NCBI RefSeq assembly: GCF_054482525.1
Contig: NZ_CM137006.1
DNA length: 64,000 nt
Direction: 5' to 3' (one strand)
Made by a program: the position numbers and the translations under genes. Under the pieces are notes generated by a model, which did not search any database, was not told the origin of the DNA, and saw only the letters and a list, made by a program, of their open reading frames with translations. Every line of letters starts with the position of its first letter. The first letter of the stretch is position 1. Of the stretch, positions 43,476 through 63,199 are shown piece after piece.

Positions 43476-45053
43476 ATGACGGAAAACATTCATAAGCATC
43501 GCATCCTCATTCTGGACTTCGGTTCTCAGTACACTCAACTGGTTGCGCGCCGCGTGCGTGAACTGGGTGTTTACTGCGAACTGTGGGCGTGGGATGTGAC
43601 AGAAGCACAAATTCGTGACTTCAACCCAAGCGGCATTATTCTTTCCGGCGGCCCGGAAAGCACCACCGAAGAAAACAGCCCGCGCGCGCCGCAGTATGTC
43701 TTTGAAGCAGGCGTACCGGTATTCGGCGTTTGCTATGGCATGCAGACCATGGCAATGCAGTTGGGCGGTCACGTTGAAGCCTCTAACGAACGTGAATTTG
43801 GCTACGCGCAGGTTGAAGTCGTAAACGACAGCGCACTGGTTCGCGGTATCGAAGATGCGCTGACCGCAGACGGTAAACCGCTGCTCGATGTCTGGATGAG
43901 CCACGGCGATAAAGTTACCGCTATCCCGTCCGACTTCGTCACCGTAGCCAGCACCGAAAGCTGCCCGTTTGCCATTATGGCTAACGAAGAAAAACGCTTC
44001 TATGGCGTACAGTTCCACCCGGAAGTGACTCACACCCGCCAGGGTATGCGCATGCTGGAGCGTTTTGTGCGTGATATCTGCCAGTGTGAAGCCCTGTGGA
44101 CGCCAGCGAAAATTATCGACGATGCTGTAGCTCGCATCCGCGAGCAGGTAGGCGACGATAAAGTCATCCTCGGCCTCTCTGGTGGTGTGGATTCCTCCGT
44201 AACCGCAATGCTGCTGCACCGCGCTATCGGTAAAAACCTGACTTGCGTATTCGTCGACAACGGCCTGCTGCGTCTCAACGAAGCAGAGCAGGTTCTGGAT
44301 ATGTTTGGCGATCACTTTGGTCTGAACATTGTTCACGTTCCGGCAGAAGCTCGCTTCCTGTCAGCGTTGGCCGGCGAAAACGATCCGGAAGCAAAACGTA
44401 AAATCATCGGGCGCGTTTTCGTTGAAGTATTCGATGAAGAAGCACTGAAACTGGAAGACGTGAAGTGGCTGGCGCAGGGCACTATCTACCCTGACGTTAT
44501 TGAATCTGCCGCATCTGCAACCGGTAAAGCACACGTCATCAAATCTCACCACAACGTGGGCGGCCTGCCGAAAGAGATGAAGATGGGGCTGGTTGAACCG
44601 CTGAAAGAGCTGTTCAAAGACGAAGTGCGTAAGATTGGTCTGGAGCTGGGCCTGCCGTACGACATGCTGTACCGTCACCCGTTCCCGGGACCAGGCCTCG
44701 GCGTTCGTGTACTGGGCGAAGTGAAGAAAGAGTACTGCGACCTGCTGCGCCGTGCTGACGCCATCTTCATTGAAGAACTGCGTAAAGCGGACCTGTACGA
44801 CAAAGTCAGCCAGGCATTCACCGTCTTCCTGCCGGTACGTTCCGTTGGCGTAATGGGCGATGGTCGTAAGTATGACTGGGTTGTCTCTCTGCGTGCTGTC
44901 GAAACCATCGACTTTATGACCGCACACTGGGCGCACCTGCCGTATGACTTCCTCGGTCGCGTTTCCAACCGCATTATCAATGAAGTGAACGGTATTTCCC
45001 GCGTGGTGTATGACATCAGCGGCAAGCCACCAGCGACTATTGAGTGGGAATGA
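43476..45053 (+). CDS. guaA: GMP synthase (glutamine-hydrolysing)
   Basis: 525 aa; GATase active site CYGMQ; ATP-PPase SGGVDSS; C-terminus …KPPATIEWE appears intact. Confidence 0.95.
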
Positions 45054-45245: not shown

Positions 45246-46496
45246 GTGCTTACCGATACAAAATTAAAAAACCTCAAGCCGCAGGACAAACTGTACAAGG
45301 TCTCCGATCGTGACGGGCTGTATGTAGCTGTGCTTACGTCAGGCACGGTCTCGTTTCGCTATGACTACCGTATCAACGGTCGTCGCGAAACACTGGTAAT
45401 CGGGCAGTATGGGCGTGACGGTATCAGCCTGGCAGAAGCGCGAGAAGAACTGATTGCTGCAAAGAAGCTGCTTAAAGCAGGCCAGTCGCCGGCTGCGGCT
45501 AAACGTGACGGTATCAAAAAGATTCGTGGTGCCGAGACGTTTGCGGTACATACCGACAGTTATATGAAACACGTCATCCTGGCTGACAGTACCCGCGCAA
45601 TGAAGCAGGCGGTGATTGACCGTGACATACTTCCGGTTCTTGGTAACAAAATGATGGCTGAAATTACCACATCGATGGTTCGTGATTTGTGTGACCGGAT
45701 TGTCGAACGCGGTGGTCGGGCAACAGCAGTACAGGCCAGGGAGATCATCAGCAGCGTATACCGTCACGCCAATGACCGTGGTCATGGTTTGTTTAATCCT
45801 GCGGCTGACATTAAACCTTCGTCTATCGCCATATTTAAACCACGAGAGCGAACACTGACACCAGAAGAAATTGGCCTGTTCTTCCGCACGCTGGATGCCA
45901 TTGGTGCTATGGGCACTATGAAAATGGCTTTAAAGCTGGTGCTTATCACTATGGTTCGTAAAGGCGAATTCACCAACGCAACGTGGGATGAAATAGATTT
46001 TAAAAAATGGACATGGACAATTCCTTCAGACCGCATGAAGGGAAGCCGGGCGCACGTTATTTACCTGCCTAAACAGGCTCAGGATATATTGGTCGGGTTG
46101 CAGATGTGCGCTGGTGGAAGTGAATATCTGGTTCCTGGTCGTTACAATTTCCGGAAGCCATTATCTAATGCCGCGCTGAACTCTCTGATCGACAGAACGG
46201 TGAAAATAATAAATGAAGATGGTGAGCATATTCAGGGCTTCACCGTACACGATATGCGCCGTACAGCCAGTACGTTGTTGCATGAGGCTGGTTATCCTTC
46301 AGACTGGATTGAAAAGGCTCTGGCACATGAGCAGAAAGGTGTGCGCGCCGTATATAACAAAGCGGAATACGCCAGACAGCGCGCCTACATGTTGCAGCAG
46401 TGGGCCGATATGATTGATTCCTGGATTAACGGGGAGCATACGGATCTGATTCCGTTCTCCCCGTCGAAGTTTGAGAAGTGGATGGCGGGGGAATAA
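45246..46496 (+). CDS. int: Phage tyrosine integrase (P4/CP4-57-like, N-terminal arm-binding domain)
   Basis: 416 aa; C-terminal catalytic region with HDMRRTASTLL and conserved R/H/Y context; first gene after guaA. Confidence 0.9.
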   Translation: MLTDTKLKNLKPQDKLYKVSDRDGLYVAVLTSGTVSFRYDYRINGRRETLVIGQYGRDGISLAEAREELIAAKKLLKAGQSPAAAKRDGIKKIRGAETFAVHTDSYMKHVILADSTRAMKQAVIDRDILPVLGNKMMAEITTSMVRDLCDRIVERGGRATAVQAREIISSVYRHANDRGHGLFNPAADIKPSSIAIFKPRERTLTPEEIGLFFRTLDAIGAMGTMKMALKLVLITMVRKGEFTNATWDEIDFKKWTWTIPSDRMKGSRAHVIYLPKQAQDILVGLQMCAGGSEYLVPGRYNFRKPLSNAALNSLIDRTVKIINEDGEHIQGFTVHDMRRTASTLLHEAGYPSDWIEKALAHEQKGVRAVYNKAEYARQRAYMLQQWADMIDSWINGEHTDLIPFSPSKFEKWMAGE

Positions 46497-50344: not shown

Positions 50345-50929
50345 TTATTGTTTGCTTTTTTCGTTCTGGTTGATGACAAATTCAATGTAACTTTCGATCT
50401 TTGCTTTCTCGGTTTCGGGTAACAATGCGTAGCGCGAGCGGTCATAGTTGATAGTCGCAGGGTCGTGCGGGTGAATCAGTAATTCATAGCCGTGACGCCC
50501 GAATGCGGATGCAACATTCTCCAGGGTGGAAATGGAAACGCTGACCTCATTGTTTAACAGGCGGCTGATTGTCACCTGGGCGACGCCGGATGCGCGGTGA
50601 AGTTTTCCCTGTGTTGAAAGGTCGCGGCTTTCGCTCATCCAGCGTTCCAGGTTGTGAGCCGCCAGCTGACCAATGTCGCTTGGGCCGACAGGCTGAAAAC
50701 CTTCCTGAGAAAGCGAGCGATCGATATCAAGCCAGTTACGGGGTTTATTGGCGGCAGCTTCAATTTTTCGCGCAACCTGGTCGCCGATAACCTTCTTACC
50801 AAGAGCCCAGCGGTTTACCAGATTTGCCTGAGTTCCAAGTTTTTCTGCCATCCGCGTCTGAACACCATTGAATTCACGGTCGATCAAGTCGTTGAGATTT
50901 TGCCTGCGGACGTCCTGGATACTTTTCAT
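50345..50929 (-). CDS. CI-like prophage repressor with two HTH segments, no S24 peptidase domain
   Basis: 194 aa; HTH-like segments (TRMAEKLGTQANLVNRW and GVAQVTISRLLNNE); divergent from Cro-like gene; no Ala-Gly/Ser-Lys autocleavage motifs seen. Confidence 0.7.
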   Translation of the reverse strand: MKSIQDVRRQNLNDLIDREFNGVQTRMAEKLGTQANLVNRWALGKKVIGDQVARKIEAAANKPRNWLDIDRSLSQEGFQPVGPSDIGQLAAHNLERWMSESRDLSTQGKLHRASGVAQVTISRLLNNEVSVSISTLENVASAFGRHGYELLIHPHDPATINYDRSRYALLPETEKAKIESYIEFVINQNEKSKQ

Positions 50930-57971: not shown

Positions 57972-58014
57972 GCATGGTACTATTACCACAACGGTAACTA
58001 TTACCACGGTGGTT

Positions 58015-58611
58015 ATGATGCCTGCTGAACCTAAAACCTATAAACGCAAATCAACGCAATTTAAGCCACTAACAGCAATGCAGGAGGCTTATTGCCAGTC
58101 ATACATCAAAACGCCTGAAAACCAGACTCAGGCAGCGATTAACGCAGGATTCTCCCCAAATACAGCGGCAGTTAAAGCCAGTGTCATGATGCGCGATGAA
58201 CGCATTCAGAAACGGATTGCCGAGTTGATGGAGGAGCGCAACAAACGAATGCGCGTCAGTGCTGATTACGTTCTCATGCGCCTGGTGGAGATCGACCAGA
58301 TGGACGTTATCGACATCCTCAACGACGATGGGAGCCTTAAACCAATCCGTGAGTGGCCGAAAATCTGGCGCACTACGCTTAGTGGCTTTGATCTGTCATC
58401 GACCATCATGAACATGAACGAGGATTCGATAGAGACAATCCTCAAAAAAATTAAATGGCCTGACAAGGTGAAGAACCTTGAGCTGATTGGTAAGCATGTT
58501 GATGTCAATGCGTTCAAAGAACGTCTGGATGTTAATGTGAATGTGACAATTGCTGATCGCATAGCGGCAGCCAGGAAGAGACTGAAAGAACGTCAGGATG
58601 GCAATCAGTGA
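58015..58611 (+). CDS. Terminase small subunit
   Basis: ORF 57937..58611; start placed after terminator at MMPAEPK; sequence resembles small-terminase proteins; directly precedes large subunit. Confidence 0.7.
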   Translation: MMPAEPKTYKRKSTQFKPLTAMQEAYCQSYIKTPENQTQAAINAGFSPNTAAVKASVMMRDERIQKRIAELMEERNKRMRVSADYVLMRLVEIDQMDVIDILNDDGSLKPIREWPKIWRTTLSGFDLSSTIMNMNEDSIETILKKIKWPDKVKNLELIGKHVDVNAFKERLDVNVNVTIADRIAAARKRLKERQDGNQ

Positions 58612-60083
58612 CAGATACAGCGTTATCTCCTGAAGAGCAGTTAATTGAGGATATTGCAGGGTTCACTCACGATCCGCTTGGCTATGCCCTCTATGCGTTC
58701 CCGTGGGGGGAAGAGGGGACTGAACTGGCACATGCTACCGGCCCACGTCAGTGGCAGGCCGATGCGTTCCGAGAGATACGTGATCACCTGCAGAATCCAG
58801 AGACGCGTTATCAGCCGCTTATGCTGGCACGTGCTTCTGGTCACGGTATTGGTAAATCCGCATTCATCTCAATGCTCATCAACTGGGGCATGTCCACTTG
58901 CGAGGATTGTAAGGTCGTGGTGACCGCCAACACCGACAACCAGCTACGAACGAAGACCTGGCCGGAAATTATCAAGTGGTCGAACCTTGCTATCACGAAA
59001 GACTGGTTTACCTGTACCGCTACCGCGATGTACAGCAATGACCCTGGGCACGACAAGCGGTGGCGGGCTGACGCAATACCCTGGTCTGAGCACAACACTG
59101 AGGCATTCGCCGGACTACACAACGAGCGCAAACGCATCATCGTGGTGTTTGATGAAGCGTCGAACATTGCGGATCTGGTGTGGGAAGTTGCCGAGGGTGC
59201 GCTTACGGACGAAGACACTGAGATTATTTGGGTGGCGTTCGGAAACCCTACACGTAACACCGGGCGTTTTCGCGAATGTTTCCGCAAATATAAACACCGC
59301 TGGAAAACTGCGCAGATTGACAGCCGGACGGTGGAAGGCACTAACAAACAGCAGTTGCAGAAATGGGTTGATGACTACGGGGAAGACAGCGACTTCGTTA
59401 AAATCCGTGTGCGTGGCATATTCCCTGATGCATCTGAATTGCAGTTTATCCCTACCGGTCTTACTGACGAGGCAATGAAACGGGTGGTAACCGCTGCGCA
59501 GGTTGCACATGCTCCGGTGATAATCGGCGTTGACCCGGCATACTCCGGCGTTGATGACGCTGTGATATACCTGCGGCAGGGGCTACACAGTAAGGTGCTG
59601 TGGACTGGCAACAAGACTACCGACGATCTGATTATGGCGAAGCGTATCGCTGACTTTGAAGACCAGTATCAGGCTGACGCGGTGTTCATCGACTTCGGTT
59701 ACGGAACCGGTTTGAAGTCAATCGGTGACGGCTGGGGTCGTACATGGCAACTTGTTCCGTTCGGTGGCGCGTCTACTGACCCGCAGATGCTCAACAAGCG
59801 TGGGGAGATGTTCAACTCATGCAAGACATGGCTGAGGCTCGGTGGCATGCTGGATGACCAGGAAACAGCGGACGACCTGTCGGCAGCAGAGTACAAAGTT
59901 CGAGTGGACGGTAAAATCGTTATCGAACCGAAGGAAGATATCAAAGAGCGACTTGGGCGTTCTCCTGGTAAAGGCGATGCGCTACTGCTGACGTTTGCGT
60001 TCCCTGTGTCGAAGCGTCTGCGAATTCCCGGTCAGCAGAACCAGCAAGGCAAGGCCATCACAGATTACGATCCCTATGCTTAA
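58608..60083 (+). CDS. Terminase large subunit (ATPase + nuclease)
   Basis: 491 aa; Walker A-like GHGIGKS; overlaps small subunit stop. Confidence 0.85.
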   Translation: MTDTALSPEEQLIEDIAGFTHDPLGYALYAFPWGEEGTELAHATGPRQWQADAFREIRDHLQNPETRYQPLMLARASGHGIGKSAFISMLINWGMSTCEDCKVVVTANTDNQLRTKTWPEIIKWSNLAITKDWFTCTATAMYSNDPGHDKRWRADAIPWSEHNTEAFAGLHNERKRIIVVFDEASNIADLVWEVAEGALTDEDTEIIWVAFGNPTRNTGRFRECFRKYKHRWKTAQIDSRTVEGTNKQQLQKWVDDYGEDSDFVKIRVRGIFPDASELQFIPTGLTDEAMKRVVTAAQVAHAPVIIGVDPAYSGVDDAVIYLRQGLHSKVLWTGNKTTDDLIMAKRIADFEDQYQADAVFIDFGYGTGLKSIGDGWGRTWQLVPFGGASTDPQMLNKRGEMFNSCKTWLRLGGMLDDQETADDLSAAEYKVRVDGKIVIEPKEDIKERLGRSPGKGDALLLTFAFPVSKRLRIPGQQNQQGKAITDYDPYA

Positions 60084-60129
60084 TCCGCTGGTGGGGATAA
60101 TGTCGTTGATATCCTCTGGTGAGGATAAA

Positions 60130-60156
60130 ACAAAGCCAGCTCATAGGCTGGCTGTT
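60130..60156 (-). terminator. Terminator of reverse-strand moron transcript
   Basis: On minus strand: agccagcctatgagctggct hairpin followed by ttgtttt. Confidence 0.5.
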
Positions 60157-60173
60157 TGTGACATGTCACAGAG

Positions 60174-60596
60174 CTAGAAAATAATTTCATCAAATGCAGC
60201 ATTTATTGCCTTTGCTTCGCTAATGGCGCCTTGTTTATCGACAATAGCTTTTTTACCAAGCACCTCGGCAAGGCACTGTAGCTTCATGTTGTATAAGTGT
60301 TCGCTCATGTAATCATTATCACTTTTTGCTTTAGCGCAAACAGAGCGAGAAATATCAAACACATCGCCTTTTTCCATTTCAGAACGTTGTGCTGTTATCC
60401 AGTCATGGAACGTAACGCTAGTACCATGGTCTTCGCTAAGAGTTAACCCGGTCAGTCCCTCACTCTGAATTACTTCGTAATGCATTTCATTACCAGCAAA
60501 AACGCCATAAAAAACGCAGTCTTCAGCCTGAACGATACGAGAATATTTTAATGGCCATTCATTTAGATACTTAGCCAACATATCAATTGTTTTCAT
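60174..60596 (-). CDS. Hypothetical 140-aa protein (reverse-oriented moron)
   Basis: Opposite strand to flanking terminase and portal genes; no recognisable motif; own terminator. Confidence 0.55.
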   Translation of the reverse strand: MKTIDMLAKYLNEWPLKYSRIVQAEDCVFYGVFAGNEMHYEVIQSEGLTGLTLSEDHGTSVTFHDWITAQRSEMEKGDVFDISRSVCAKAKSDNDYMSEHLYNMKLQCLAEVLGKKAIVDKQGAISEAKAINAAFDEIIF

Positions 60597-60794
60597 GATC
60601 TCACCTTAAAAAAATGCCCGGCGAACCGGGCGAACTGGAAGCAATGAGTTATGCCTTCCGTGGCTGTACGGGTTTACAGCATGAAGTCATCGCAATGGCG
60701 TCCTGCTGTAAAAAGGGCGGTGATAGTCCTTCAAGGGAAACCATCACCGCCAAGCACCTGGAACTTCTGGCATCACGGTCCTTAGGCGTGATTC

Positions 60795-60871
60795 TGGCGC
60801 GGCATGCAGGATTCGAACCTGCGACCAACCGCTTAGAAGGCGGTTGCTCTGTCCAACTGAGCTAATGCCAC
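60795..60871 (-). tRNA. tRNA-Arg (anticodon UCU), phage-encoded
   Basis: Hand-folded cloverleaf: acceptor GUGGCAU/AUGCCGC, D-arm GCUCAGUUGGACAGAGC, anticodon stem ACCGC/GCGGU with loop CUUCUAA, T-arm CGCAGGUUCGAAUCCUGC, 3' GCCA encoded. Confidence 0.85.
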
Positions 60872-61298
60872 AACGCTGAGAGCACTTAGCCTGTTAAGGC
60901 GCCACACTTTGTCGCGGCTCCATAAATGCTCTCATCGTTGTACCCTCGTCTCTTCCGAGGTGTCACACCGAATCGCCGGGATGGTGAATCCCCGTGCGCG
61001 GAATAAAACCGCTCGACTTGCACATTCCGGCTACCTGGTTCGTTTGCCCGAGCAAGGGAGGGTGCCCCTTAAACGTATCCAGACCGCTATCGGCGCATGT
61101 GCCATACGCCGTACTGCTCAAAATAAAAGCTCACCCCACCTGTTCAATTTAACGACAAGCCAGTCAGATTAGTAACTGGAGTGAATTCTTTGGTTACCTG
61201 AAAGGTAATAATTCGTGCGTTAAATGTCAACTGTCTACGATAAATAAATCATATGTGGTTAAATTGGTAATAATTTAATTGCGTACGGAGTCATTGAT
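60872..61298. promoter_or_regulatory. ~430-bp non-coding region upstream of portal; likely promoters for tRNA/moron (leftward) and portal operon (rightward)
   Basis: No credible ORF; contains TTACCTGAAAGGTAA at 61204-61218 and AT-rich -10-like sequences. Confidence 0.45.
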
Positions 61299-61505
61299 AT
61301 GTGCATGGGTAGCTCACCATCAGTGCCTGCAACACCAGAAGTTCAGGCAGCACCACAGGAGCAGGATGCCGCCGTTGTTGATGCCCGCGACGAAGAAACT
61401 CGTCGCCGTCGCGCTGCTGCTGGTCGTAGTTCTACGCTGCTTACCGGTTCTCAGGGCGACACATCAACCGCTAATACCAGCGGTAAAACGCTGCTTGGTC
61501 AGTAA
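61299..61505 (+). CDS. Small Ala/Gln/Arg-rich protein preceding portal
   Basis: 68 aa; RBS context ggagtcattga-ATG nearly identical to that of portal gene. Confidence 0.5.
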   Translation: MCMGSSPSVPATPEVQAAPQEQDAAVVDARDEETRRRRAAAGRSSTLLTGSQGDTSTANTSGKTLLGQ

Positions 61506-61519
61506 CCGGAGTCATTGAA

Positions 61520-63199
61520 ATGGCGGAAACAACTAAAGAGCGATTGAACAAACAGTTCGCACAACTTGAAAGCGAGCGTCAGTCGTTCGAGCCGCACTGG
61601 CGCGAGTTGAGTGATTACATCAACCCGCGTGGTTCCCGCTTTCTGACTTCTGAGGTCAACCGTAACGATCGGCGCAATACACGCATTATTGATTCGACCG
61701 GGACTATGGCGGCGCGCACTCTCGCCAGCGGCATGATGTCAGGCATCACAAGCCCCGCGCGTCCGTGGTTTCGCCTGGCTACGCCAGATCCTGAAATGAT
61801 GGATTATGGCCCTGTTAAGTTGTGGCTTGAGGCAGTTCAGAACCGCATGAACGATATGTTCAATAAGTCGAATCTCTACCAGTCTCTTCCGCAGTTATAC
61901 GGAAGCCTCGGCACATACAGCACTGGTGCAATGGCAGTGCTGGAGGATGACGAGGACATCATTCGCACAATGCCATTCCCGATAGGCAGTTACTACCTGG
62001 CTAACTCACCTCGTGGCAGTGTTGACACCTGTTTTCGCAAGTTCTCTATGACTGTTCGTCAGCTTGTTCAGGAGTTCGGGCTAAATAACGTCAGCGAATC
62101 CGTAAAAAGCATGTGGGAAAGCGGCACCTACGAGAAGTGGATCGAAGTGATGCATTCGGTTTACCCGAACATTGACCGCGATACATCGAAGCTGGATAGC
62201 AAGAACAAGCCATTCAAATCGGTTTATTACGAGGTTGGTGGAGATAACGACAAGTTGTTGCGTGAGTCCGGATTCGATGAGTTTCCAATTATGGCTCCGC
62301 GCTGGGAAGTTAACGGCGAAGATGTTTATGGATCATCATGCCCGGGTATGCTGGCGCTTGGACCTGTTAAGGCATTGCAGCTTCTCCAGAAGCGCAAGTC
62401 GCAGTTGATTGATAAAGCCACCAATCCGCCGATGGTTGCTCCGACTTCCCTCAAGAATCAGCGCGCCTCCCTTCTTCCTGGCGACATCACGTATATCGAT
62501 CAGATTACTGGTCAGGATGGCTTCAGGCCTGCTTATCTGGTTAACCCCAGTACAGCAGATTTGGTGGCAGACATTCAGGACACTCGTCAAATCATTAACA
62601 GCGCCTACTTTGTCGATCTGTTCATGATGTTGCAGAACATCAATACCCGCTCGATGCCTGTTGAAGCGGTGATCGAAATGAAAGAAGAAAAACTTCTGAT
62701 GTTGGGGCCGGTTCTGGAGCGTCTGAACGACGAATGTCTTAATCCTCTCATTGACCGCGCTTTCTCGATGATGGTGCGCAAAAACATGCTGCCGCCACCG
62801 CCTGACGCGATGGAAGGCATGCCCCTGAAGGTCGAATACATTTCCGTCATGGCTCAGGCGCAGAAGTCTATCGGCCTGTCCAGTCTGGCGTCCACGGTTA
62901 ACTTCATTGGTCAACTTGCGCAAGCGAAACCAGAAGCTCTCGACAAACTCAACGTTGATCAGGCGATCGATGCATTCGCTGATATGTCCGGAGTGTCTCC
63001 AACCGTCATTGTTCCGCAGGAACAGGTTGAGCAGGCTCGCCAGCAACGGGCACAGCAACAACAGCAGCAACAAATGATGGCGATGGGGATGGCGGCGGCA
63101 CAGGGGGCCAAGACGCTAAGCGAAGCTAAAACTTCGGATCCGAGTGTGTTGTCAGCTATGGCGAATGCAGTTAGTGGTCAGGGTGGGCAATCACAATGA
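61520..63199 (+). CDS. Portal protein
   Basis: 559 aa; follows terminase large subunit; C-terminal Gln/Ala-rich tail; portal-like size and position. Confidence 0.75.
   Translation: MAETTKERLNKQFAQLESERQSFEPHWRELSDYINPRGSRFLTSEVNRNDRRNTRIIDSTGTMAARTLASGMMSGITSPARPWFRLATPDPEMMDYGPVKLWLEAVQNRMNDMFNKSNLYQSLPQLYGSLGTYSTGAMAVLEDDEDIIRTMPFPIGSYYLANSPRGSVDTCFRKFSMTVRQLVQEFGLNNVSESVKSMWESGTYEKWIEVMHSVYPNIDRDTSKLDSKNKPFKSVYYEVGGDNDKLLRESGFDEFPIMAPRWEVNGEDVYGSSCPGMLALGPVKALQLLQKRKSQLIDKATNPPMVAPTSLKNQRASLLPGDITYIDQITGQDGFRPAYLVNPSTADLVADIQDTRQIINSAYFVDLFMMLQNINTRSMPVEAVIEMKEEKLLMLGPVLERLNDECLNPLIDRAFSMMVRKNMLPPPPDAMEGMPLKVEYISVMAQAQKSIGLSSLASTVNFIGQLAQAKPEALDKLNVDQAIDAFADMSGVSPTVIVPQEQVEQARQQRAQQQQQQQMMAMGMAAAQGAKTLSEAKTSDPSVLSAMANAVSGQGGQSQ

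Follow-up and report, generated by a model that had tools for sequence, protein, structure and literature searches.

The window analyzed here is a 64,000-nucleotide stretch of contig NZ_CM137006.1 from assembly GCF_054482525.1, and between 45.2 and 64 kb it carries an epsilon15/phiV10-like (Uetakevirus) prophage in which a unit on the reverse strand lies between the genes for the large terminase subunit (terL) and the portal protein. Our findings suggest that this unit is a leftward, repressor-controlled early RNA operon, comprising a structured RNA and an AGA-decoding transfer RNA (tRNA), followed by an accessory gene slot that depends on transcriptional read-through; we give this reading an even chance. 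Along the minus strand the elements succeed one another as a promoter-like site with an operator, a leader of ~80 nucleotides (nt), the structured RNA of ~250 nt, tRNA-Arg(UCU), a terminator (T1), a conserved spacer, a second terminator (T2), an open reading frame (ORF) of 140 amino acids (aa), and a third terminator (T3). A preliminary description of the sequence had already placed a reverse-strand tRNA-Arg(UCU) and the 140-aa ORF between terL and the portal gene, which ARAGORN, Rfam, and the ORF coordinates bear out. Taken at face value, a tRNA and an orphan gene make an ordinary genus-wide accessory slot with a common kind of phage tRNA; the surprise is the structured RNA that heads the unit.

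The structured RNA is pseudoknotted and occupies 60868-61115 on the minus strand; covariance model R1 scores the window copy at 143 bits (E 4e-46). Its core (60942-61115) consists of hairpin H1, helix H2, hairpin H4 with a CACC/GGUG pseudoknot, and hairpin H5 with the loop GAAGAGA, and it contains a near-invariant 19-mer, GGUAGCCGGAAUGUGCAAG, at 61020-61038. The 3' hairpin H6 (CAACGAUGAGAGCAUU...AGUGCUCUCAGCGUUGUGG, 60868-60941) has arms that covary among loci, for example as GAUGAUGGC/GUCAUCUUC and CCAAAAGAGC/GCUCUUUUUG, and it ends in GUUGUGG, the same end that is found in lambdoid copies without a tRNA. This region had been described as a 430-base-pair (bp) non-coding stretch with one palindrome; the palindrome is indeed present (61194-61208), but the stretch is far from empty, its main feature being the conserved structured RNA.

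Distant BLAST searches with this spacer revealed matches in the unannotated DNA of three groups of phages: lambdoids (cdtI, mEp460, and phages converting their hosts to Shiga toxin (Stx) production, of types Stx2c and Stx2a); P1, P7, D6, and SJ46; and other enterobacterial phages. An exact search for the 19-mer (GGTAGCCGGAATGTGCAAG) returned more than 120 IMG/VR contigs. In the alignments of these phage matches, single-stranded stretches are invariant, stems carry compensatory changes, and length variation is confined to the tips of hairpins. Covariation was evaluated on a MAFFT alignment of 35 representatives (A3) with a proposed structure in which 96.5% of cells are paired, compared with 26-48% in controls slid by 1-3 columns. 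Changes on both sides affect 14 pairs and 77 cells, and none of 500 shuffles reaches the observed values. The pseudoknot between the H4 loop and its downstream partner covaries from CACC/GGUG to AACC/GGUU. The proposed structure also includes an invariant pseudoknot helix, GCACAU/AUGUGC; when covariation of this helix was sought among members picked via an independent anchor, the sole variant was a decayed copy, and the 19-mer was nearly invariant (136 of 144 members have it without any change). The 19-mer may also resemble the 690-loop of 16S rRNA and 4.5S RNA. An independent prediction by RNAalifold contains H2, H4, H5, and this GCACAU/AUGUGC helix. Since G-U pairs are frequent and would be A-C mismatches on the opposite strand, the RNA is read from the minus strand of the window; all 45 tRNAs located within a few kb of RNA members share the strand of the RNA.

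Searches against existing resources returned no counterpart. Rfam 15 gave no match over 60868-61115 even at E<=10, a scan of 58-64 kb and a permissive one of 60597-61298 yielded only the tRNA and chance-level matches, and literature searches by sequence string and keywords found nothing on the structured RNA. It is annotated in none of the examined records, several of which carry spurious ORFs over the RNA or the tRNA, and gp37 of mEp460 overlaps it on the wrong strand. The known prophage small RNAs AgvB, AsxR, Pas, STnc100, and DicF were considered and set aside: their Rfam families have no match here, and Pas RNAs lie in late regions. Apparently, this large RNA has not been described before. 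Model R1 found no second copy in the window, in the whole genome of the near-identical phage HEMP4, or in the 19 kb around the immunity region of mEp460, where a copy on the PR side was sought.

The family is widespread. The RNA is present in 1829 of 5426 complete Escherichia coli genomes (34%), at up to four places each, and no feature is annotated over it among the matches listed. Species-representative genomes contain it in 24 stretches, all full-length model matches (108-165 bits) and all in Enterobacterales, except for two short contigs of metagenome-assembled genomes. These two contigs, L149 and L162, are 1.7-3 kb long, are labelled Bacillota and Lachnospiraceae, and carry full-length copies; they are probably mis-binned enterobacterial phage DNA. 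Phytobacter ursingii has three copies on three contigs of one genome (L165-L167), and Kosakonia quasisacchari, Citrobacter braakii, and Pseudescherichia vulneris have two copies each.

The genomic context of these copies points to early transcription. A cI-type (S24) repressor gene ends ~200 nt upstream of the RNA, on the same strand, in 56 of 122 loci, and in the loci read in detail the cI stop codon is followed by a terminator, a promoter with operators, and the RNA, which begins ~5-55 nt from the predicted start of transcription. In mEp460, WGPS2, 1720a-02, and PhiR55_1, cI and the RNA are followed by yfdP/yfdQ-like early-left genes, with no N annotated. From this order we infer that the RNA occupies the N/nutL position of N-less lambdoids, where the promoters are predictions and the absence of N is that of the record annotation. 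Stx-converting phages are among the lambdoid carriers, with the RNA at the start of the early-left operon. In P1, the RNA lies 14 nt after trnI (tRNA-Ile) and ~100 nt before ban, within the C1-controlled ban operon. A T1-like module, with a covarying stem and the conserved sequence CTTTTTACA, follows the RNA in 68 of the 122 loci, lambdoids included. The first sense-strand terminator after the RNA peaks at +300 to +400 nt; because the relaxed terminator scan has an antisense background of 78 in 111, only this positional peak and the conserved T1 motif were used. Between the RNA and the first lambdoid gene of mEp460, no promoter was found at the stringency of the scan, which is not in itself decisive. 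Downstream of the RNA core, the early transcripts of L018, L043, L106, L110, L116, and L119 each contain several hairpins resembling H6 (ACAAC..GAGAGC(G)C...G(C)GCUCUC..GUUGUGG), which bracket tRNAs, small ORFs, and terminators and may be processing sites.

In the window, the region upstream of the RNA suggests control by the prophage repressor. Direct reading of the sequence predicts a candidate sigma-70 promoter on the minus strand, with a -35 element TTGACA (61230 to 61225), a 17-nt spacer, and a -10 element TACCTT (61207 to 61202); a consensus scan predicts an overlapping alternative on the same strand, TAGACA-18-AATTAT, at 61237 to 61208. The palindrome TTACC-N5-GGTAA (TTACCTGAAAGGTAA, 61194-61208) contains the -10 element TACCTT, and the -10 element AATTAT ends where the palindrome starts; the arrangement of TTGACA-17-TACCTT with the operator is repeated in locus L116. 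With up to one mismatch, the palindrome has 13 matches in the window against 1.1 expected, a count reached in none of 100 shuffles. The cI-like repressor gene (50348-50929) has copies to its left and to its right, an arrangement like that of OL and OR around lambda cI, and the equivalent site in the epsilon15 record is annotated "repressor, lysogeny," which together point to the palindrome as a repressor operator. Because the candidate promoters overlap or abut this operator, we infer that the reverse-strand unit would be repressed in the lysogen, where its expression is doubtful, and would fire early. Two further palindromes, one exact and one with a single mismatch, lie at 57983-58015, at the 5' end of the frame of the small terminase gene (terS), so that the terminase operon may also be under direct repressor control; the same is annotated in the epsilon15 record. 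The 5' leader of the unit (61116-61193, minus strand) contains a small hairpin (61179 to 61160) and is not conserved outside Uetakevirus.

Downstream of the RNA, ARAGORN identifies the only tRNA of the window, tRNA-Arg(tct) at 60795-60871 on the minus strand, with an encoded CCA. The Rfam tRNA model scores it at 69.4 bits (E 4e-14; threshold 29), with a standard cloverleaf, and its first four nucleotides (GUGG) are the last four of hairpin H6. As described earlier, the anticodon UCU reads the AGA codon, which is used 7.3 times per 1000 codons in HEMP4 and 1.5 times in the host part of the window, a difference of about 5-fold; the AGA codons of the phage sit mostly in tail genes. The 140-aa ORF contains no AGA and no AGG codon, and the tRNA therefore serves the phage at large rather than the ORF. 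Similar tRNA-Arg(UCU) genes, with a standard cloverleaf and the same rare codon, occur in many phages; here, in contrast, four shared nucleotides fuse the tRNA to the last hairpin of the structured RNA, and the tRNA stands behind an operator-overlapped candidate promoter.

Two terminators separate the tRNA from the ORF on the minus strand. T1 (60707-60751) has a hairpin with a 14-bp stem (60751-60716) followed by CUUUUUACA, and T2 (60608-60631; stem 60631-60616) reads GCCCGG-UUCG-CCGGGC followed by A and U7, its U-run ending 11 nt ahead of the ATG of the ORF. Both were located by the terminator scan, and the stem-loop equivalent to T2 is annotated as a rho-independent terminator in epsilon15. 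The segment between them (60632-60706, minus strand) is ~82% identical in epsilon15, Tyrion, SPN9TCW, and the Klebsiella phage; speculatively, it could form a small RNA together with T2, and Rfam gave only a chance-level RyhB-like match for the segment (E 1.2, far below the gathering score). No promoter was found between the tRNA and the ORF, in the T1/T2 region, either by consensus scan or by sequence reading. With no promoter of its own and T1 and T2 upstream, the ORF would be translated only from transcripts that pass both terminators. An 83-aa ORF on the opposite strand (60614-60865, plus) is antisense to the tRNA, T1, and T2; its equivalents have been deposited as "hypothetical protein" in phiV10 (PhiV10p04), TL-2011b (gp24), and EC.W1-9 and are almost certainly spurious genes.

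The 140-aa ORF extends on the minus strand from 60596 to 60174, stop codon included, with an ATG start and a ribosome-binding site, AAGGTGAG, at 60607 to 60600. It has 80 homologues, all in Enterobacteriaceae, and ratios of nonsynonymous to synonymous substitution (dN/dS) of 0.18-0.40, which establish it as a real gene under purifying selection. The absence of a recognizable domain, remarked on in the preliminary description, was confirmed with the profile and structure-prediction searches proposed there. The only family match is PHROG 4846 ("unknown function"); there was no match among NCBIfam, PADLOC, or PDB profiles and no Pfam match in the query or in any of 26 aligned family members. The AlphaFold model has a predicted local distance difference test (pLDDT) score of 81, and its fold comparison gave no informative match. 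Only 32 cluster representatives among 1.84 billion proteins make up this tiny family, which is also mosaic: it has three alternative C-terminal tails, and its C-terminal helical module of ~50 residues recurs behind an unrelated N-terminus in phage Tyrion (L007 2566-2934) and in several database proteins. The guanine-plus-cytosine (GC) content of the ORF region is 0.40-0.42, compared with 0.52-0.58 in the flanks. T3, the terminator that the preliminary description had placed behind the ORF, was found there by the scan of the minus strand (60153-60134); terL, which runs tail-to-tail with the ORF, shares it, and phiV10 annotates a plus-strand terminator at the site.

Comparison with relatives shows that the ORF occupies a position where genes are exchanged. 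The preliminary description saw an insert between genes that are normally contiguous and suggested a check for relatives in which terminase and portal are adjacent; the unit is not peculiar to this phage, and every Uetakevirus relative examined carries a reverse-strand unit between terL and gp3, the small gene that precedes the portal gene. One to three reverse-strand genes occupy this slot in epsilon15, phiV10, TL-2011b, EC.W1-9, PAS61, SPN9TCW, Tyrion, a Klebsiella phage, and Enterobacter prophages; at least seven PHROG families, unrelated to one another, supply the cargo. Relatives keep the RNA, the tRNA, and the terminators, and what is swapped is the ORF, bounded by T3 and T2. Aligned with phiV10, the window loses homology at 60169 and regains it at 60596, no more than 5 nt from the ends of the ORF, and homology to relatives breaks at ~60170 and at 60596-60608; the flanks, including T3 and T2, are 96-98% identical to phiV10. 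This precise swapping, together with the atypical GC content, indicates that the ORF behaves as exchangeable accessory cargo.

The cargo itself is diverse. In phiV10 and epsilon15 it is a PF13876 protein (N4 gp49 / Sf6 gp66), and homology between the 140-aa ORF and phiV10 gp03 was tested and rejected. A 201-aa variant is also found in the slot. Homologues of the ORF at 41% identity share the slot with two further cargo genes: in the Enterobacter prophages L137 and L138 (5001-6208), three genes stand in tandem, of which the ORF homologue encodes 134 aa, one is a PF13876 gene, and one encodes 82 aa, which shows that cassettes can accumulate as well as replace each other. Other cargo includes membrane- or lipoprotein-like proteins. 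In the Klebsiella phage ST512-KPC3phi13.3, the C-terminal domain of the cargo protein matches PDB chains of Tad2 ("Prophage anti-Thoeris 2") and AcrIIA7, with E from 4e-16 to 8e-13. The likeness to Tad2/AcrIIA7 (DUF2829) is one of position, since a homologue fills the same slot; the 140-aa protein itself has neither sequence nor fold similarity to them. From its place in the slot, the 140-aa protein is probably an early accessory protein that serves in counter-defence or host takeover.

The closest known counterpart is the epsilon15 gp50/phiV10 gp03 locus (NC_004775, NC_007804). It resembles the unit in position, in strand, in a T2-type terminator upstream of the ORF, in a terminator shared with terL, and in a repressor-binding palindrome upstream of gp3, and it differs in the protein, which is unrelated (PHROG 4846 here, PF13876 there). 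Epsilon15 differs further in lacking the tRNA and half of the RNA: a deletion of ~330 bp (L002 2600-2800 against window 60745-61077) removes tRNA-Arg and H6 and cuts the RNA core down to its 5' half. T2 and the cargo gene are kept, and model R1 scores only 37 bits there.

According to the operon model, the prophage repressor would shut the unit off, and the unit would fire early after induction or infection. The tRNA would supply a decoder for the AGA codons over-used by the late genes of the phage, and the ORF, having no promoter of its own, would be expressed only from transcripts passing T1 and T2, so that its protein would be made as an early accessory factor in counter-defence or host takeover. 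The structured RNA would most likely act in cis on the transcribing RNA polymerase, or otherwise set the fraction of read-through; in N-less lambdoids it would do so from the N/nutL position, directly downstream of PL. We favor a cis action on elongation, because the RNA would be the first segment transcribed from the early promoters, replaces N positionally, and precedes terminators that the downstream genes must pass.

Such an action would have a precedent in RNA-based antitermination. RNAs of the put type make RNA polymerase resistant to terminators through the zinc-binding domain of the beta' subunit. The put RNAs of HK022 are RNA-only processive antiterminators of ~70 nt with two stems (PMC9378689). 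As in HK022, the RNA described here is encoded in cis downstream of an early, repressor-controlled (predicted) promoter in N-less lambdoids, with terminators downstream. However, compared by sequence and structure alone, it has a ~170-nt core plus a hairpin and at least two pseudoknots rather than two stems in ~70 nt, occurs as one copy instead of two, and is also found in a podovirus and in P1. Membership in the put family was rejected, since model R1 finds nothing in the HK022 genome, the architecture differs, and the copy is single.

Several observations weigh against the operon model. The promoter, the occupancy of the operator, and the read-through are predictions from sequence, and the single operator could serve a divergent promoter for gp3 and the portal gene instead. 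The RNA is single-copy in each genome, with none on the PR side, unlike putL and putR. The RNA is inherited together with its own T1, which suits a stand-alone RNA gene no less than an antiterminator, and possibly more. Epsilon15, which has lost the tRNA along with the RNA's 3' half but has kept T2 and the cargo, is viable, and the stretch from the RNA to ban in P1 has no evident terminator. Finally, the 140-aa protein is similar to no anti-defence protein, and the counter-defence role is proposed from its position.

A possible, if tentatively held, alternative is that the RNA is a stable, trans-acting early product, for example a regulator, or a sponge or decoy that would capture a host factor or a defence component; it would be co-transcribed with the tRNA, freed by tRNA-processing nucleases, and ended at T1, with the ORF receiving only incidental read-through. 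The single copy, the viability of epsilon15 without an intact one, and the missing terminator in P1 all suit this explanation. It also gains from the presence of T1 beside the RNA in both lambdoid and Uetakevirus contexts and from the direct contact with tRNAs, which may lie on one flank or the other: tRNA-Arg follows the RNA in this prophage, and tRNA-Ile precedes it by 14 nt in P1. The constancy of the 19-nt sequence suggests a sequence-specific partner. The tRNA cluster of phage T4 likewise yields stable RNAs of unknown function, its species 1 and 2 RNAs, and ROOL and GOLLD in prophages are further structured RNAs of unknown function beside tRNAs; compared with ROOL and GOLLD, the present RNA is smaller, resides in Enterobacterales hosts, and has no Rfam match. 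However, a stand-alone RNA leaves unexplained both its exact N/nutL position in N-less lambdoids and a promoterless cargo gene behind two strong terminators, and in L119, L106, and P1 an ORF or gene starts right after the core, without a terminator.

The preliminary description saw the architecture of a moron. On a classical reading of this kind, the tRNA and the ORF would form one cassette, expressed on its own and active in the lysogen, with a role in lysogenic conversion or superinfection exclusion. Morons of the lambdoid phages HK97 and HK022 are promoter-gene-terminator cassettes, and the ORF resembles them in its variable presence among syntenic relatives, its deviating GC content, and the terminator behind it. 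The lone operator may also repress only weakly, and the membrane- or lipoprotein-like cargo of the slot could act in exclusion. The comparison thus fits the ORF, which is swapped, deviates in GC, and ends at T3, but it fits its expression poorly: no promoter of its own was found from T2 to the ORF, which lies behind two terminators that separate it from the tRNA, and the sole promoter-like sites of the unit overlap or abut the operator. Nor is the cassette self-contained, since the RNA and the tRNA are conserved where the ORF is swapped; the tRNA belongs to a conserved RNA-tRNA-terminator module that occurs without the ORF in relatives, and the ORF has no AGA or AGG codon. We regard a classical moron as improbable.

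We are still more doubtful of a leader that senses a ligand or factor, in the manner of a riboswitch or attenuator, and chooses between stopping at T1/T2 and continuing into the cargo or the early-left operon. Such a role would suit the complex pseudoknotted core, its highly conserved joining nucleotides, its location 5' of a conserved terminator, and its place at the head of operons relevant to the lysis-lysogeny decision and to excision. However, the terminator lies 150-330 nt past the core with a tRNA or ORF between them, no alternative pairing of the core with T1 was established, and the downstream content is highly variable. That the ORF encodes a conserved head-assembly or packaging accessory protein, for which only its position between terminase and portal speaks, is scarcely credible: unrelated families take its place in phages so closely related that their terL and portal are 95-98% identical, it lies on the opposite strand behind terminators, and its family is tiny.

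The surrounding genes are those of a Uetakevirus prophage. On the plus strand, terS and terL (58608-60083, phrog_2) precede the reverse-strand unit, which is followed by a 68-aa gp3-like ORF (61299-61505) and by the T7-type portal/head-tail adaptor gene (61520-63199, phrog_332). The gp3-like ORF, a PHROG 831 member of unknown function, is conserved and immediately precedes the portal gene in every relative examined. Assignment to Uetakevirus follows from the synteny and identity of terS-terL-gp3-portal-protease, and we count integration next to guaA in its favor. Over 60084-61519, identity is 99.9% with phage HEMP4 and 92-98% with PAS61, phiV10, TL-2011b, and others; taken by themselves, these three named relatives fall at 94-98%. 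A 525-aa ORF at 43476-45053 is taken to be guaA from its length and position, and the integrase gene (45246-46496) follows it directly. Uetakevirus relatives integrate at the 3' end of guaA (PMC9782041), and the order of the putative guaA and the integrase agrees with this attB site.

These results have implications for annotation, for phage biology, and for the study of accessory genes. About one-third of complete E. coli genomes, as well as the model phage P1, contain an RNA that has been left unannotated, and several wrong-strand "hypothetical proteins" in GenBank, placed over the RNA or the tRNA, are probably products of misannotation. Because the slot swaps precisely between conserved terminators and holds a Tad2/AcrIIA7 homologue in one relative, the 140-aa orphan and its slot-mates offer a short, testable list of candidate counter-defence genes. 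Only tentatively do we suggest that the RNA is a new class of phage regulator, either a second RNA-only processive antiterminator unrelated in structure to put or an RNA effector directed against a host factor. Control of elongation by the RNA, if real, would account for the way in which N-less phages get past their early terminators; and if it is an antiterminator, it would stand in for N across a large set of lambdoid phages, Stx-converting phages included, and would gate accessory or anti-defence cargo in epsilon15-like phages.

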